Virus record (IMG/VR): IMGVR_UViG_2671181114_000018 | Origin: a virus | Lineage: Duplodnaviria; Heunggongvirae; Uroviricota; Caudoviricetes | DNA: 29,945 nt | Strand: one strand, 5' to 3' | Shown here: in pieces, positions 1-29,945 of the stretch | Position numbering within the stretch: position 1 is the stretch's first letter | How the letters are laid out: every line of letters starts with the position of its first letter | Notes under the pieces: generated by a model | What the model was told of the DNA's origin: nothing | The model's database searches: none | The model's input: only the letters and a program-made list of their open reading frames with translations | Translations under genes and position numbers: made by a program

Positions 1-1365
1 TTATGGACGGAGGCAATACTCGGCAATTCGAAGCGCTGAAATGTGCTTTTCATGGATCATGTCGTTCCCGCATCCGCATTCATTCTCACATGGTTCTCGC
101 ACCCATACACCATCGCTATTTTTTCGGTAGAACCATCCAGGACGAAAACCTGCGTTCTGCATATACATCCCTGGGTGAACGACAACTAATTCACATACTT
201 CAATCAGGTCAGTCTCATGGCATATGATTCCAATTCCCTTCTGATACACGGCCTGAAAGTCTTTATTGACATGTTTTATTAGTTCATCTATCTCAAAAGC
301 GACGTAATTTTTTCCTTTAAGAAGCCGCTCTATCTTTGGCAAGCGCAATGGAGAATTGTCATTATCTGTACCAAAGAGAATTATGCTGGGTGAACTTATT
401 GTAACGCCGCCTGTTAATTCGCCTCTCATCGTTTCAATAGAGTCAAATAGCTCAGCTATTTTCCCACCACGATAGAAAGCAATACTAGGAGAAACGTTTT
501 TCACATAACTATCATGATATTCAGGTAATTCAAGTGACCGCTTGAATACAGGAATATCTATATTTGGATCCCTTAATTGTTCAACTTCCCGCCAAGGTAA
601 GTCTAATAACTCCTTGAGGATAGGATCCTCCGTAACTGACGGGAATAAGGAATTTGTATCAGTGATTGCATTCAATACGGCATATTGTTTTAAAAGTGAC
701 CGACTAGCTTTTATCTGTGCAATAAAGCAATTTTCTGGAACTGGCTCTCCATATAGCGGCCCTAGTAACCAAGCATCTTGGGCCTGCATTCTGGGTCGGA
801 AACCCTTAATTTCAATATCAGAAAGATCAACCAAACCAAGACGAGATGCTAGTGATTTATCTAGAATGTAGAGATATCCATCTCCATCTTCATAATAATA
901 CCTTACCGCTTTTTTTATCAGCCATATGGGGTTTTCATTACAGTCTTCGCACATGTCTATCTTTGGCGGTGGAGATGGTTTTATTGACAGTGAACATTTA
1001 TGACTCGCAAACCAAGCGGCAACTGCAGGGTTAGTGGTACAGTCAACATAGAATGATCTCCATCCATAGTGTTGTAACAGTGCCTGTACATATTCCAGAT
1101 CGTTTGCATGGCTACCAATTACTCCCTCAAGCACACTTGCAGCATAGCTAATCCACTTTATCATCGTTGACTTGTTACATTCATCGCGATCAAAAGAAGC
1201 AAGTACGGATGGTACCTCCTGCTTACCATAGAGAGAATTTTGACCTCGAAATAATACATTGTCACCAAACTGTGCAATTACAGCTTCCAGCTCACTAATA
1301 GTTCTGACCTCAAATTGTTCCAATTCTTCCCTCTCCCCTGAATTCGCAATCATGGCATCTTGCAC
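1..1365 (-). CDS. Hypothetical accessory protein with N-terminal FRG-like motif and Cys-rich C-terminus (candidate defence/cargo gene)
   Basis: Complete 454-aa ORF (stop = revcomp of nt 1-3). Contains 'VLFRGQNSLYGK' near the N-terminus, which I recall as the FRG domain signature, and Cys clusters (CEDCNENP; PCENECGCGNDMIHEKH). Visibly AT-rich compared with the phage structural genes. Function not known from sequence. Confidence 0.45.
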   Translation of the reverse strand: MQDAMIANSGEREELEQFEVRTISELEAVIAQFGDNVLFRGQNSLYGKQEVPSVLASFDRDECNKSTMIKWISYAASVLEGVIGSHANDLEYVQALLQHYGWRSFYVDCTTNPAVAAWFASHKCSLSIKPSPPPKIDMCEDCNENPIWLIKKAVRYYYEDGDGYLYILDKSLASRLGLVDLSDIEIKGFRPRMQAQDAWLLGPLYGEPVPENCFIAQIKASRSLLKQYAVLNAITDTNSLFPSVTEDPILKELLDLPWREVEQLRDPNIDIPVFKRSLELPEYHDSYVKNVSPSIAFYRGGKIAELFDSIETMRGELTGGVTISSPSIILFGTDNDNSPLRLPKIERLLKGKNYVAFEIDELIKHVNKDFQAVYQKGIGIICHETDLIEVCELVVVHPGMYMQNAGFRPGWFYRKNSDGVWVREPCENECGCGNDMIHEKHISALRIAEYCLRP

Positions 1366-1439
1366 GCAAAATTTATGAACACCGACTCTAGTACTATGTT
1401 AACAAATGTATCAAAAACTTCCCCTGTCATTTGAGTTAG

Positions 1440-2345: not shown

Positions 2346-2370
2346 AAAAAAGCCCGCATTATGCGCGGGC
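2346..2370 (-). terminator. Rho-independent terminator closing the minus-strand late (tail) operon
   Basis: Plus strand aaaaaa-gcccgc-attatgc-gcgggc: 6-bp GC stem (2352-2357 / 2365-2370) with 7-nt loop. On the minus strand the hairpin is followed by TTTTTT, 12 nt after the stop of the 2382-4085 gene. Confidence 0.6.
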
Positions 2371-2381
2371 TGATGGGATGA

Positions 2382-22590: not shown

Positions 22591-23598
22591 TTATTTGCTT
22601 TTATTTCCATCATTATTAGGATGATTTACAGGAGTAAGGCCTGAGGCTACATCATTAGCAGTTTGAAGACTGGTAGGAATCAGACCGGGCCAATTTGCCC
22701 CATTTAGTCCCCAATTGAGTTTAGCTAAATTCTCACCAGGCCAGGTTGATTTCGCAGAATTTAAATCAAGTCCCTGAAGCCCCTGAAGCCCCTGAACCCC
22801 CTGAAACCCCAGAGAACCTAAAGTCGGCCTGGCAAAAGGCAGTGTATTCTTAGATATTTCCTGATTAATATCGTCTAATTTATTTTGATTCGCTATAATT
22901 TTGGCATTCAAATCCATCAATTCTTTTTCTTTTAATTCCAATTCCGTCCTCACCTTCGAAATTGAGTCCATAGCATTATAATAAGAATTGGTAACTGACT
23001 GAACCTCTTTTCCCTTTTCCTTTATTAACTCATTAATATCCCTGAGCTTTACCTGAGCGTTATTATATTTATCTTCAAGCGCGTTTGTATCATATTCGAT
23101 AGCTTTATTTGCCTTTTCAGCATTTAACCTCGCTTTTGCGTCTGCATATTCATACTCGACATTTTTATTTATTTCGTCTATTTTTAAATCAAGAGCACTC
23201 TGTTTTCTCTTACTATCATTTGTACTCTTTTTCGTAAGCACTCCATTTTGTATTACATCAACAACATATGAGATAAAAGGAGTGCCAACTACAAATATAA
23301 TTGAGGCAACAAATGGATACCAAAACGTATGAGTATGAGGGATGCTAATTCCAAAAAAGACACTATTTGATGGTAACGCCTTTATTTTTTCAATACGTTG
23401 TTCTATGTCCAGACTGAACGAGAATAAGAGTAATAGAGTGCGGTCCCAGTTACAGAGAATCCAAGAGGATATGAAGCATAGAAAAAATGGATTTGATAAC
23501 CGTTGATTAACAGCTTTCACTACCGGTTCAGTTGTAACTGATTTTACCGCATCCAAAGCTTTATCTATTGTTTCGCTCATTTTAGGAGTATCAACCAT
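22591..23598 (-). CDS. Accessory membrane-anchored coiled-coil protein with C-terminal collagen-like G-x-Q repeats (candidate superinfection-exclusion/defence cargo)
   Basis: 335-aa ORF (start may be the internal Met 'MSETIDK'). Hydrophobic N-terminal segments ('FFLCFISSWILC', 'VASIIFVVGTPFISYVV'), long K/E-rich heptad region, C-terminal 'GFQGVQGLQGLQGL'. Visibly AT-rich; sits between the replication gene and ogr/portal, the position of tin/old in P2. Confidence 0.5.
   Translation of the reverse strand: MVDTPKMSETIDKALDAVKSVTTEPVVKAVNQRLSNPFFLCFISSWILCNWDRTLLLLFSFSLDIEQRIEKIKALPSNSVFFGISIPHTHTFWYPFVASIIFVVGTPFISYVVDVIQNGVLTKKSTNDSKRKQSALDLKIDEINKNVEYEYADAKARLNAEKANKAIEYDTNALEDKYNNAQVKLRDINELIKEKGKEVQSVTNSYYNAMDSISKVRTELELKEKELMDLNAKIIANQNKLDDINQEISKNTLPFARPTLGSLGFQGVQGLQGLQGLDLNSAKSTWPGENLAKLNWGLNGANWPGLIPTSLQTANDVASGLTPVNHPNNDGNKSK
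22772..22807. repeat. In-frame tandem repeat, 4 units of 9 bp (ccctgaagc x2, ccctgaacc, ccctgaaac) inside the cargo gene
   Basis: Read directly from the plus strand; on the minus strand the units encode the G-L/F/V-Q triplets of the collagen-like tail. Confidence 0.9.
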
Positions 23599-23714: not shown

Positions 23715-26369
23715 TTAATCTCGTTTAAAAATCCAGCATCGGAATGTATCCGGCATCCGTTGCATATCCCCTTTACCACGGTTATGGCGCTCACTAACTG
23801 CGCTGCGCGTGGTGCTTTGTCTGATGAACCGACGTTCATTACCGTTTTTAAGCAGCTTTTTGATTTCCGTTAAAGTGAACGGAATCCGCTGCCGGTGTGC
23901 TGCTGCGACTTCTTCCATATGATTGAAATTAATTGCAATTTCATTTTCATCTGATGAGTGATTGACGCCATAGGGTGCCAGTTCATCCAGGTAATCAAAC
24001 AGTTCCCAAAACTCCTGCACCATCGGGTGATCCTTTTTAAGCGCCTGACAACGTTCAATAGCCAGCGCGGTGATGGCTTCGCGAGTTTTTTCTATGCGTT
24101 CAACCGGTACCGGCACAACAAGCGCAAGCGCCTCCAGCAAACCCACAAGCTGCGCGTGATTCTTTGCAATACGGATATGGCGAATACTACTGTTAGATTC
24201 CAGCGCATTCCTGGCGCGTTCGTATCCCTTACCGAACGTCTGCATGATTTCTTTCTCACGCATGGTGGCCAGTAGTGTGAATCCCGATACCTGGCTAACA
24301 GGGAGTTGTTCCAGCCGCTCCGCAGCGTGGCGCGTCTGAATAGACTGCCCGCGCTTGTCGGTATAGATATGGATAATACGCTCCAGAAACGCCTTGCTGC
24401 CGTCTGTATCAGCGTTCTGCGCAATCACAATACTGCCCCTGAATGGCGGTTCGTATGTTTCGTTATTGTTGGACTTTATCCCCACAGCACGGGAAGCGCG
24501 GCCGTTATACAATGATTTCAGTTCATCCCAGTCAAAAGCACGTTGCTTGGCGTTATCCGTTGTGCGGTCGCCTTCGATTAACACAACCGGCAGGTTGCCG
24601 ACCTGGGCAAAGTTGCGCCCACGCGCTGCGGCCGTGGACTTAGAAGGATCAAAACCTTCATATTCTTCACGGCCGGCGAGCTTCCACAGAAATTCAATCA
24701 GTGTAGATTTACCTGTCCCCGGTTCACCCACGATTTCCAGAAACGGGAATGACTTATCGCGCTCCCGGATTTGTTCGGCAAAAAGCGACCCCAGCCAGAA
24801 TGCTAGCGCCACGTACCCCTTTTCACCAAATGCCGTCCAGATATCGTCAATCCAGCCCGTGGTAAATTCATTCAGCTTTGGATTCAGATCCAGCGATGGT
24901 GTCAGGCTCAGGCTTTTTACACTGGCGTGATTGATTTCAAAATAGTCTTCATCGTTCATCTCATACAGCCGGCCATCGCACACGGCCACACGGTTAAACA
25001 GCCACGCTGAATAATCTTTGTTGTAGCCGATAAAGTTCTGTGTCTTAACCTCTTTTATTTCAGGAAGCCGCATCTGGATGAACTTATCCAGTTGCTTGGT
25101 GCTGCCGGTGTATACCGCCCCTTTGGCGATATGCAGCAAACGTTTCTTAAACTCGGCGGAGCTGGTGAGCTGGTTCGCCGTGAAGGTATCCTTCACCGCT
25201 GGCCGGTTCGGCATGTTGACCTTAACGTAATACCAGGACTCGTCAGTAGGTTCAGAACGCTGGAAATAGAGCGGAGTCAGCCAGCAGTTAGCTATTTCTG
25301 TCACGCCGCCAGATTCTTTCACCGCACGTTCTTTGGCTTCCCAGTCCTGGATAACTTCGGTACCGGTATTACTTATGCGCTCATAGGCTCGCATGTACCT
25401 GTCCAGATCCAGTTCAAACCAGAACATGCGGGAATTATGTTCAAAATAGAACGAATGCCACTCATTATGCTGATGCATGAGCAGCGCTTTTTCAGTCGGA
25501 CTTTTCGCCAGCAGAATATCGCCATAGTAGCGATAATTTTTGATGTCCGATTTACTGAACCGGCCACGCAACAACAAGTCATTCCAGTCCAGACAGGAGG
25601 ATGATTTCACCGGCTGCGCCGCACGAACTTTCCAGCCGGCATCCTCACTACGTGCAGCAAATGCCAGCGTGTGCTTTGTGCCGGCCTTATCGCCGTCAAA
25701 TGCCCATACAAGGCGTGGGCGCGGTTTTTCGCCCAGTTCTTTGGCCAGCGTATCCAGTGCGGCCAGAGGGTAGTTGTTACTGCTCAGTGTGGCAACTGCG
25801 GGTAAACCCGCCTGGCAAAGACTCAGCGCATTAAATATCCCCTCAGTGATCCAGATTTCATTCACTTCCAGCAGGTTGACAGAAGGTGGTACCCACCAAT
25901 GGCCAACATAACTCCCTTTAATATTGGCTTTTTGCTTACCAAAGCGTTGGGGCTGGTCAATAATGCGCTCCCACGTCGCACCACATGCCAGCTTAAATTT
26001 GACTGTTGCCGATCCCATGCCATCTTTAACAAACGCGCCCTGGGTGAAAATGCCTTTCAGTGGTTCGGTATCCAGCCCTCTGGCCTCACGCAGATACGCC
26101 TCAGCAGCTGCGTGTGGGGTTTCAGGAGTGTCCTGATACCGTTTAGACCAGTCCTCAAAAATATCCGGGTACAGCTCTTTAACAACGACCTGATGGCCGC
26201 AGTTATTTTCGCGACCACACTTCAGAATCCAGGGCTTATCTATGCTGGTGAATAATTCGCGCTTACGACACTTAGGGCATACACCCTGCTGCAAATACTT
26301 ATCCCGCTCTTTAAACTCAAAATCCTGAACAAGACGGCGCACAACGTCCTGTTGTATCGTTGCGTTCAT
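23715..26369 (-). CDS. Replicative primase-helicase, P4 alpha-type (zinc-binding primase + D5-like SF3 helicase)
   Basis: Track ORF 23715-26405 (896 aa); probable start 'MNATIQQ' (26369). N-terminal zinc-ribbon Cys pairs (CPKC...CGRENNCGH), Walker A 'GEPGTGKST' in the helicase part; size and domain order resemble P4 alpha. Confidence 0.8.
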   Translation of the reverse strand: MNATIQQDVVRRLVQDFEFKERDKYLQQGVCPKCRKRELFTSIDKPWILKCGRENNCGHQVVVKELYPDIFEDWSKRYQDTPETPHAAAEAYLREARGLDTEPLKGIFTQGAFVKDGMGSATVKFKLACGATWERIIDQPQRFGKQKANIKGSYVGHWWVPPSVNLLEVNEIWITEGIFNALSLCQAGLPAVATLSSNNYPLAALDTLAKELGEKPRPRLVWAFDGDKAGTKHTLAFAARSEDAGWKVRAAQPVKSSSCLDWNDLLLRGRFSKSDIKNYRYYGDILLAKSPTEKALLMHQHNEWHSFYFEHNSRMFWFELDLDRYMRAYERISNTGTEVIQDWEAKERAVKESGGVTEIANCWLTPLYFQRSEPTDESWYYVKVNMPNRPAVKDTFTANQLTSSAEFKKRLLHIAKGAVYTGSTKQLDKFIQMRLPEIKEVKTQNFIGYNKDYSAWLFNRVAVCDGRLYEMNDEDYFEINHASVKSLSLTPSLDLNPKLNEFTTGWIDDIWTAFGEKGYVALAFWLGSLFAEQIRERDKSFPFLEIVGEPGTGKSTLIEFLWKLAGREEYEGFDPSKSTAAARGRNFAQVGNLPVVLIEGDRTTDNAKQRAFDWDELKSLYNGRASRAVGIKSNNNETYEPPFRGSIVIAQNADTDGSKAFLERIIHIYTDKRGQSIQTRHAAERLEQLPVSQVSGFTLLATMREKEIMQTFGKGYERARNALESNSSIRHIRIAKNHAQLVGLLEALALVVPVPVERIEKTREAITALAIERCQALKKDHPMVQEFWELFDYLDELAPYGVNHSSDENEIAINFNHMEEVAAAHRQRIPFTLTEIKKLLKNGNERRFIRQSTTRSAVSERHNRGKGDMQRMPDTFRCWIFKRD

Positions 26370-26408
26370 ATATAATCCATGTGTGAAATGATGAATAAAA
26401 GGCAAAAA

Positions 26409-27208: not shown

Positions 27209-27544
27209 TTAACGTTGGGAAGCTGCAACAGGTTTTAGATGGGAGTTATTTATTCTTAATGCGTTAGTCGCCAGAGACATAAGACCTGAAATATTGTTTT
27301 CGGTTGGGATGTTTCCACCGAACACCATAAGCGTGATTTTATGAAGTTCCTCAAAATCTTCACTGTCATTATTAAAACGAGCAGTAGAGGTTATACCTTC
27401 AAGACATTTTGCAAGCTGAATGTTTAATTCCATTAACTGCAAACCATCGCTATGAACAGAGAACGTTTCTTTATCAATGGCTTTAGCCTGAGCGTGATAA
27501 TTTTGCAACAGGCTGCGTATGAGAGTCGCGTATTTAGTTTTCAT
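27209..27544 (-). CDS. Hypothetical early protein
   Basis: Track ORF 27209-27577; likely start at internal Met 'MKTKYATLIR' (27544), just after the cox stop. No motif recognised. Confidence 0.35.
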   Translation of the reverse strand: MKTKYATLIRSLLQNYHAQAKAIDKETFSVHSDGLQLMELNIQLAKCLEGITSTARFNNDSEDFEELHKITLMVFGGNIPTENNISGLMSLATNALRINNSHLKPVAASQR

Positions 27545-27816
27545 CGTGGTTCTCCCAAACCCAGCCACATTAACCACCCATCCCTAATTTCCTTCGGGCG
27601 GCTCTCATACGCTAATTTCATTCCGTTGTTCCAAGCAGGAAGATAAATCCAATATTCTCCAGCTCGACCAGAGGTGGATTGCGGGTCTGTCATTTCAACA
27701 ATAGGTAATTTCCCTTTTTCAATCATCCCCTTTACAGCTCGCTCCGATTTTCCAATGAGCCGAGCGAATTCCTGATAGGGGACAGCATCGCTGGTTAGAA
27801 CAATTTGCTTAGTCAT
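27541..27816 (-). CDS. cox: Cox-like excisionase / early-promoter regulator
   Basis: 91 aa, first gene of the early operon, divergent from C. Length and sequence closely resemble P2 Cox as I recall it ('...IPYQEFAKLIGKS...GRAGEYW.YLPAWNNG...'). From memory. Confidence 0.75.
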   Translation of the reverse strand: MTKQIVLTSDAVPYQEFARLIGKSERAVKGMIEKGKLPIVEMTDPQSTSGRAGEYWIYLPAWNNGMKLAYESRPKEIRDGWLMWLGLGEPR

Positions 27817-28348: not shown

Positions 28349-29362
28349 ATGACAGTTAAGAAACTCGATGATGGTCGGTATGAAGTGGATATCAGACCTG
28401 CCGGGCGCAACGGAAAGCGCATCCGCAGGAAGTTCGACAAAAAAAGCGAGGCTATCGCTTTCGAAAAACACACGCAGTACAACCACCACAACAAAGAATG
28501 GCTTTCGAAGCCGACAGACAAGCGGCGTCTGTCAGAGCTAACGGCTATATGGTGGGAGTTGAAAGGAAAGCACGAGGAACACGGAAAATCTAATCTTGGG
28601 AAAATTGAAATATTTACCCGGATAACTGATGACCCCTGTGCGTTCCAGATAACGAAAGCACTTATCAGCCAGTACAGCGCTACCCGCAGAAGCCAGGGTA
28701 TAAAGCCATCAAGCATTAACCGGGATTTAACCTGCATAAGTGGCATGTTCACCGCATTAATTGAGGCTGAATTGTTCTTCGGTGATCACCCGATACGCGG
28801 TACGAAAAGACTGAAAGAACAGAAGCCGGAAACCGGCTATCTGACACAGGATGAAATTAGCTTGTTGCTTTCGCAACTGGACGGAGACAACAAGAAGATT
28901 GCGATTCTTTGTCTTAGTACCGGCGCAAGATGGGGTGAAGCCGCGCGGCTGAAAGCGGAGAACGTGATCCATAACCGCTGTACGTTTGTTAAAACCAAAA
29001 CGAACAAACCACGCACTGTGCCAATTTCTGACGAGGTGGCAAATATGATCGCCAACAACAAGCGAGGCTTTCTTTTTCCGGATGCAAACTATCCAGCATT
29101 CAGACGGTTGATGAAGGAACTGAAACCTGATCTTCCGGCCGGACAAGCAACCCACGCATTGCGTCACAGCTTCGCAACCCATTTCATGATTAACGGTGGG
29201 AGCATCATCACGCTGCAACGTATCCTTGGCCATTCGCGAATTGAGCAAACTATGGTCTACGCACACTTTGCCCCGGAATACTTGCAGGACGCGATCGCCC
29301 TCAATCCGTTACGTGGAGGAATTGAGGTTCAGAGTGTCCACACAGTGTCCACAGACGAGTAA
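28349..29362 (+). CDS. int: Tyrosine integrase (P2 Int-type)
   Basis: Track ORF starts at 28286 with TTG; real start is Met 'MTVKKLDDGRYEVDIRPAGRNGKRIRRKF' at 28349 with GGAGGG upstream. Catalytic C-terminal 'HALRHSFATHFMINGGSIITLQRILGHSRIEQTMVYAHF' (R..H-x-x-R...Y). Downstream of C as in P2. Confidence 0.9.
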   Translation: MTVKKLDDGRYEVDIRPAGRNGKRIRRKFDKKSEAIAFEKHTQYNHHNKEWLSKPTDKRRLSELTAIWWELKGKHEEHGKSNLGKIEIFTRITDDPCAFQITKALISQYSATRRSQGIKPSSINRDLTCISGMFTALIEAELFFGDHPIRGTKRLKEQKPETGYLTQDEISLLLSQLDGDNKKIAILCLSTGARWGEAARLKAENVIHNRCTFVKTKTNKPRTVPISDEVANMIANNKRGFLFPDANYPAFRRLMKELKPDLPAGQATHALRHSFATHFMINGGSIITLQRILGHSRIEQTMVYAHFAPEYLQDAIALNPLRGGIEVQSVHTVSTDE

Positions 29363-29446
29363 CTAAATATGGCTTTCAGTGGTCTTGTGTGCCGCGCAAA
29401 CCCGCATTGCACCGTTGAAAGCCCCTATTGTAAGGGTACATAAACG

Positions 29447-29469
29447 CCCTTACACGGGCTTATTTTTTT
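29447..29469. other. Phage attachment-site core (prophage right junction), P2-type core
   Basis: cccttacacgggcttattttttt is the reverse complement of the P2 att core AAAAAATAAGCCCGTGTAAGGG as I remember it; about 85 bp downstream of int, within a hairpin (gtaaggg...cccttac) plus T-run. Confidence 0.6.
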
Positions 29470-29627
29470 ATGCATAAGCCCTATCTCTGGTAACCGTCTT
29501 CCATTGACCACATCGATAGAATCCTCCTTCATAGCACGATGCCTTTCACTTATCGGCATCGTGCTCCCACAAGTTCCGGCTACGCACAGCCAGAACGCGC
29601 ATATTTGACGCTTACCAAAAAATATTC

Positions 29628-29945
29628 TCACTCTCCACATTTGAATGTCAGACGAGCGACACCATGTAATCCTACACCTTCTGTCTTCAGCTCAACTATT
29701 TGCATTTTTTTGCCCTGAGTAACACAGAAATGAGTTGCATCATTTTTTACTATATTTTCTGCACCAGATATTCTACCCCTGGCTAAAGAAGCTTCGGCTT
29801 CGGTGTAGTATTGGTTATCGAGTTTACGCTGAATATTACTTTTATATGCAAGACCAAATTTACCGATACTTGTCTCATCATTATGCACAGCACAACCAGA
29901 CATAATAAAAATACTAATTAATGATATAGCAGCTATCTTTTTCAT
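29628..29945 (-). CDS. Small lipoprotein (probably flanking, non-phage gene)
   Basis: 105 aa starting at the window edge; signal peptide with lipobox 'IMSGC' (MKKIAAISLISIFIMSGCAV). AT-rich; outside the att core. Confidence 0.55.
   Translation of the reverse strand: MKKIAAISLISIFIMSGCAVHNDETSIGKFGLAYKSNIQRKLDNQYYTEAEASLARGRISGAENIVKNDATHFCVTQGKKMQIVELKTEGVGLHGVARLTFKCGE

Follow-up and report, generated by a model that had tools for sequence, protein, structure and literature searches.

The window, by which we mean the whole stretch of DNA analysed (29,945 nucleotides), is occupied by a prophage whose integrase gene is read towards a short piece of host chromosome at the right end. The features to which we refer are the following.

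1-1365, minus strand: FRG-domain cargo gene of 454 aa (Pfam FRG, 1e-07), the last prophage gene before the left junction
2351-2371, minus strand: intrinsic terminator after the tail spike gene, from a terminator scan (2371-2351, then TTTTTG)
23715-26405: primase/helicase-type replication protein
27541-27816: cox gene (Pfam Phage_Cox, 4.5e-43)
28349-29362, plus strand: P2-type tyrosine integrase of 337 aa (Pfam Int_N, 4.5e-24; Phage_integrase, 1.1e-21), read towards the junction
29328-29354, plus strand: P' arm, inside the 3' end of int, aligning with P2 24470-24496, where the P' arm Int site is annotated
29352-29425, plus strand: predicted counterpart of the P2 Cox-binding region, aligning to the P2 Cox protein_bind feature 24399-24472
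29424-29458, plus strand: phage/core RNA hairpin with its 5' arm in phage DNA and its 3' arm in the core, then CTTATTTTTTT; candidate int terminator
29447-29469, plus strand: att core copy, equal to the final 22-23 nt of cyaR, which comprise the U-tract and the 3' half of the terminator stem
29447-29453, plus strand: CCCTTAC, the putative crossover segment, sole stretch between the flanking differences in which phage and host are the same
29454-29945, unstranded: host chromosome, comprising yegR and the region between it and cyaR; joined directly to cyaR where the site is unoccupied
29481-29516, plus strand: host segment resembling the P2 P arm, including an exact 15-nt match, CATTGACCACATCGA (29502-29516)
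29533-29565, unstranded: perfect 11-bp stem-loop in host DNA, arms 29533-29543 and 29555-29565
29628-29945, minus strand: host gene yegR, annotated as such under the match in E. coli genomes

The integrase is 89% identical to P2 Int over all 337 aa, and the 3' end of its gene holds two direct arm-type Int sites, TGTCCACA, predicted by reading the sequence at 29335-29342 and 29346-29353; the reverse complement of this motif, TGTGGACA, fits the P2-type arm consensus, tgTGGaCa (PMC3448106). The Cox-region counterpart contains an inverted repeat (29371-29383 / 29411-29423) that is also present in P2, and position by position the P' arm sites, the Cox region and the core line up with attP as annotated in P2. 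Arm-type sites flank the core on both sides, the P' arm in the window and the P arm (GTCCACA and GACCACA) in L013 and L015, two near-identical assemblies that continue beyond the left end of the window. The order of elements is likewise that of P2 attP, with the P' arm in the 3' end of int, the Cox region, the core, a putative IHF site and the P arm, at which Int, Cox and IHF would be expected to bind. When attP was rebuilt from the two junctions, megablast against phage genomes returned no match to it, and a more sensitive search gave an unbroken alignment with P2 24292-24493 as well as with other Peduovirus genomes.

The core, CCCTTACACGGGCTTATTTTTT, spans 29447-29468, to which 29469 adds a seventh T, and is the single match in the window at up to 3 mismatches (0 expected, from 100 shuffles); the absence of a left-side repeat inside the window, which the preliminary description had reported, is thereby confirmed at this threshold. 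Against the 27-nt P2 att core, annotated in attP and reading AATCTCCCTTACACGGGCTTATTTTTT in the orientation of the window, 25/27 bases agree, 22 of them contiguously, and against the 3' end of K-12 cyaR 22/22 are identical. In the fold of native CyaR RNA these bases make up the 3' half of the terminator stem and the U-tract. The preliminary description had placed a P2-type core beside int at a prophage/host junction, and in this it was right, the alignments of both core and integrase to P2 bearing it out; what it had overlooked is that the core is the 3' end of the host gene cyaR, one half of its terminator. In RefSeq, the cryptic prophage PR-X of K-12 (ogrK, yegZ) is annotated as starting inside cyaR, and its end, ...ACACGGGCTTATTTTTTTATGCATAAGCCC, is identical to the window from 29452 onward. 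The classical P2 site locI is located between trhP/yegQ and yegR. In the paper on the E. coli W genome (PMC3032704), "cyaR RNA" is listed among the sites that P2-type prophages occupy in strains W, K-12 and B, and as empty in Crooks. An Rfam search of the whole window at the gathering score found neither CyaR (RF00112) nor any other credible family, and a permissive search (E up to 10) of 29300-29700 gave the same result; the full-length matches to the CyaR model, at 99 and 100 bits, lie outside the window.

Beyond the core the DNA is that of the host. The window from 29368 to 29945 matches 5418 of 5426 complete E. coli genomes, and a composite query made of K-12 cyaR and the right flank aligns without a break, at 100% identity, to the unoccupied site in genome H79. 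Compared with Salmonella lysogens that have the same integrase, the phage DNA shows 100% identity up to 29453, and the divergence starts at 29454. Because the composite reproduces the empty site and because the divergence from the Salmonella lysogens falls at this very position, we assign everything from 29454 onward to the host, and phage DNA, with its P' arm Int sites and Cox region, extends up to 29446. In the comparison with an uninfected locus that the preliminary description had proposed, the flanks join into an uninterrupted attB in H79 and in most E. coli genomes; the cyaR-yegR site is uninterrupted or carries no more than a small remnant in 4562/5426 of them. Such remnants are of the K-12 type (~630 bp) or of another class with an insert of ~170 bp, and the site is split by a large insert in about 16% of the 5426 complete E. 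coli genomes. The P-arm-like segment within the host flank reaches a local alignment score of 38 against the P2 P arm, compared with a maximum of 27 in 500 shuffles; it is also present in K-12, and a similar sequence, TTGACCACA, occurs at a comparable distance in the Salmonella flank (L016-L025). On this similarity, the segment is probably the fossil of an older integration. In its layout the flank repeats the phage itself: where the phage has its P arm, terminator and cargo gene, the flank has the P-arm-like segment, a strong hairpin and then yegR, whose reading direction is towards the core. This suggests that an earlier integration of the P2 type left behind the right flank, and perhaps yegR as well, as fossils.

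The left junction was read in L015 and L013 rather than in the contig of the window; these two assemblies were found by exact-protein look-ups and match the window throughout the overlap, L015 with 0 mismatches over 7481 nt and L013 with 1 mismatch over 17451 nt. In both, the order leftward from the window is the stop codon of the FRG gene, a stem-loop (AAACCCCGTCTTGACGGGGTTT), the P-arm sites (ATGTCCACATATCGACCACAT), the core (CCCTTACGCAGGCTTATTTTTT), the rest of cyaR, trhP, yegP and baeR. The core copy is located 111-132 nt to the left of window position 1 (-132 to -111), and 20/22 of its bases are identical to the copy at the right; the search for a direct repeat to the left of the window, which the preliminary description had recommended, thus recovers it by way of these assemblies. 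The junction regenerates a full cyaR (100 bits against Rfam RF00112), and in the window's own contig the left core would read CCCTTACGCAGGCTTATTTTTTG. The FRG gene occupies the slot adjoining attP in which relatives carry an O-acetyltransferase. When complete E. coli genomes were searched with the left 2.4 kb, nothing matched window positions 1-1429; an origin of the left DNA outside E. coli, which this absence had first suggested, was discarded, the absence being explained by a cargo gene shared with Salmonella. The structure at 2346-2370, an "A-run/hairpin" that had been considered as an attachment site, is instead a canonical intrinsic terminator on the minus strand.

The same reading follows from the sequence identities, from where the two junctions lie, from the empty site and from colinearity with the attP of P2. 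The locus is almost certainly the integrase-side junction (BOP' in lambda/P2 terms) of a P2-family prophage at the cyaR terminator, and we are equally confident that its own tyrosine integrase inserted the prophage at locI, in the 3' end of cyaR, an sRNA gene of E. coli. The type of junction is ordinary and already understood, and the site is a known hot spot; the minor new details are the mosaic phage and a core of the Salmonella type.

Of the two possibilities that the preliminary description had offered for the left side, an extension of the prophage beyond position 1 is the one that agrees with the second core 111-132 nt outside the window in the near-identical assemblies, and a degenerate left site finds no support there other than the 2 nt at which the two core copies differ. 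The corresponding view of the whole element, that it is a remnant whose left attachment site was lost or has decayed, could appeal to the lack of a second core in the window, to the two differing bases and to the deleted form of the element known in Salmonella (L006), but the assemblies that agree with the window over 7.5 and 17.5 kb keep an intact P arm and a core that regenerates cyaR just outside it, and the complement of head, tail, lysis, replication and integration genes in the window is complete, which makes this view extremely improbable. Nearly as improbable is that the 11-bp hairpin belongs to the recombination site or comes from the phage in some other way. Its distance of about 65 nt from the core, and its position after the P-arm-like fossil, just where in phages the P arm precedes a terminator hairpin, could be taken in favor of such a role; however, K-12, genomes whose site is unoccupied and almost all E. 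coli possess the hairpin, and it lies outside the stretch colinear with P2 attP, so that it would be at most the relic of an ancient integration. The preliminary description was correct that a perfect 11-bp inverted repeat exists here, but placed it at 29527-29557, 6-8 nt too far to the left, the true repeat lying partly outside the range of 29400-29560 that it had delimited for the junction; a link between this repeat and the junction finds no support, since it is host DNA found in K-12 and at unoccupied sites. The GGGCTTAT/ATAAGCCC repeat, in the DNA from 29454 on, likewise belongs to the host. The hairpin lies 63 nt downstream of the yegR stop codon and folds with -19.3 kcal/mol on the plus strand and -21.7 kcal/mol on the minus strand (z = -6.7 and -5.2), with a T-run on neither strand. 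Among Escherichia and Shigella genomes its stem is conserved and its loop variable, and in the genomes carrying yegR the stem is invariant, with no compensatory changes; because only the loop varies, covariation is uninformative for or against an RNA structure. Our best guess is that it would form a stem-loop at the 3' end of the yegR transcript. Directly downstream of it on the minus strand (29529-29481), a strong Shine-Dalgarno-like AAGGAGG precedes by 9 nt a 10-codon ORF (MWSMEDGYQR), an arrangement that is conserved in several E. coli and Shigella genomes and could be due to chance.

The hairpin at the core itself calls for a more balanced judgement. The preliminary description had the core sitting inside a hairpin followed by a T-run, and this is what we find, the 3' arm CCCTTACA (29447-29454) pairing with TGTAAGGG (29429-36) in a 9-bp stem of -12.7 kcal/mol (z = -3.3). 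A scan of 29200-29945 for the consensus terminator pattern found no terminator, and at the core it is negative because the T-run begins 8 nt past the 9-bp stem. A longer RNA fold extends the pairing to a bulged stem, 29424-29458, which ends 1 nt ahead of UUAUUUUUUU. Since the core is the 3' end of cyaR with half of its terminator, we regard the hairpin and T-run as what is left here of the CyaR terminator, its 3' half, which was displaced and now pairs with unrelated phage DNA. That they are instead primarily a Rho-independent terminator, designed by the phage for the int transcript, would fit the direction of int, which is read towards the structure with 62 nt between its stop codon (29362) and the stem from 29424, as well as the fold in which the bulged stem is directly followed by CUUAUUUUUUU and the stability of the entire 110-nt 3' region (-35.7 kcal/mol, z = -3.1). 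Set against this, the U-tract and the bases from 29454 are host DNA and part of the CyaR terminator, the consensus scan is silent at the core, and P2 lacks the TGTAAGGG complement, so that this stem is not conserved in the module. We therefore consider a primary terminator function unlikely, though its chance is not negligible; folding makes a role of the core hairpin in terminating int possible, and any such role would rank second to its function in attachment.

Returning to the reading of the locus as a cyaR junction, the two copies of the core are not quite the same, and the difference hints at how the exchange took place. They differ at 2/22 bases, the left copy, on the cyaR side, having GCA and the right copy, on the int side, ACG; in addition, the cyaR-side copy has six Ts followed by G and the int-side copy seven Ts. 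The phage core, CCCTTACGCAGGCTTATTTTTTGC, which is of the GCA form, matches Salmonella cyaR exactly. Salmonella lysogens have GCA at both junctions, with a host-derived 5' half of the stem, GCCTGCGTAA, complementary to this form; SseK2 and accession CP040648 confirm that those loci are from Salmonella. In Salmonella enterica, the integrase and the cargo protein are both widespread in identical form. The split seen in our prophage, with the phage-type bases on the cyaR side and the host-type bases on the int side, recurs in EC11, a second and unrelated E. coli lysogen. Because the phage-type bases are all at one junction and the host-type bases all at the other, we infer that the crossover occurred in the 7 bp CCCTTAC (29447-29453); the same pattern may also have arisen by segregation of a heteroduplex overlap, the number of informative lysogens being two. 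Neither the exact left junction nor the reciprocal right junction, i.e. GCA next to the E. coli flank, is present in the complete E. coli genomes, and the papers covered by a literature search did not give exact strand-exchange points for P2.

The phage carries a copy of the 3' end of cyaR, and an Int-mediated exchange within the core would insert the phage in such a manner that its own copy completes cyaR at the cargo-side junction and the displaced host copy lands beside int. The circular phage attP would then read ...AAACGCCCTTACGCAGGCTTATTTTTTGCC... / ...ACATAAACGCCCTTACGCAGGCTTATTTTTTGCCTG, and the emptied attB ...AATCTCCCTTACACGGGCTTATTTTTTTATGC. Phages of the P2 type cannot be induced through the SOS response. 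Phages with tRNA or sRNA genes as their targets usually restore the gene in this way. The chimeric CyaR terminator is still fully paired in the RNA fold, with -20.3 kcal/mol against -19.8 kcal/mol for the native one. We put forward tentatively, at somewhat less than even chances, that the integration was a cross-genus one, in which a core with a 2-nt heterology was exchanged within CCCTTAC and left the E. coli lysogen with a chimeric, half-phage CyaR terminator.

The comparison with related systems places the element between two groups of phages. With P2 it shares the integrase family and the host target, the cyaR terminator, but its phage-side core is AAACG-CCCTTAC-GCA-GGC where that of P2 is AATCT-CCCTTAC-ACG-GGC. 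Moreover, its gene order is not P2-like, combining a primase-type replication protein with the structural module of the ESSI-2/Evevirus type, and the P arm is adjoined by a cargo gene rather than by ogr, which here is next to the portal gene. ESSI2_ev239 (Evevirus, Peduoviridae) matches 76% of a 25-kb query at about 86% DNA identity and shares the gene order, in which a cargo slot separates attP from a non-coding stretch of roughly 1 kb. In contrast to our prophage, however, ESSI2_ev239 has another integrase and att module and carries an O-acetyltransferase instead of the FRG protein, and a relative of it integrates between raiA and pheL. By sequence, then, the head, tail and replication genes are like those of ESSI-2/Evevirus, and the int-cox-att module is of the P2 type. 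The cyaR insertion site is shared with PR-X of K-12, Wphi2 of E. coli W and P2*B of E. coli B, whose right host flank is the same from ACACGGGCTTATTTTTTTATGCATAAGCCC onward (PMC3032704); unlike the window's prophage, which is apparently complete, PR-X is a 630-bp remnant without int. Phages 186, HP1 and Fels-2/SopE-phi at ssrA, which use the 3' ends of tRNA or tmRNA genes, similarly restore the RNA gene by the phage copy and leave a partial duplicate at the other junction (PMC3448106), but the target here is the terminator of an Hfq-dependent sRNA and not a tRNA-like gene.

Some further observations concern the rest of the prophage. The non-coding block of ~1 kb at 1430-2380 is conserved at 86% in related prophages, and 7/8 of the TGTGAYGG motifs of the window cluster at 1440-1730, in both orientations, around an AT-rich portion at ~1650-1700, with 8 seen in the whole window where about 2.2 would be expected; in sequence, the block looks like an iteron-type origin or a cis-acting replication region for the replication protein. 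The 454-aa FRG protein has a weak PADLOC match to the candidate defence family PDC-S15 (3.7e-09), and proteins identical to it are mostly found in Salmonella enterica. In relatives, the slot holds an O-acetyltransferase (ev239, L003) or a PIN_12 protein (L014). A 335-aa ORF on the minus strand (22591-23598), between the ogr-like and primase genes, has weak PADLOC matches to LmuB (4.9e-05) and no Pfam match; at this position ESSI2_ev239 has two small unrelated genes, and it may be a second variable cargo slot. The deleted version of the element in Salmonella (L006, GCA_042191955.1, 1-11365) is also at the cyaR site and retains the int end and the FRG end, with the portal gene truncated and fused to tail-fibre fragments, and the head genes and most tail genes missing.

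The right boundary of the prophage is thus to be set at 29446-29453 and its left boundary about 110-130 nt beyond the window, and neither the 11-bp hairpin nor any other DNA from 29454 on should be counted as phage. The locus adds one further case of P2-type integration in the cyaR terminator, by a mosaic phage that joins an ESSI-2-like body to a P2 int/att module and whose core fits Salmonella better than E. coli. If the cross-genus integration is true, the chimeric CyaR might subtly alter the stability of the sRNA or its binding to Hfq. With the natural 2-nt heterology one may ask whether a host sRNA terminator is changed in the lysogen, and the heterology offers a small usable handle on where P2-type integrases exchange strands.
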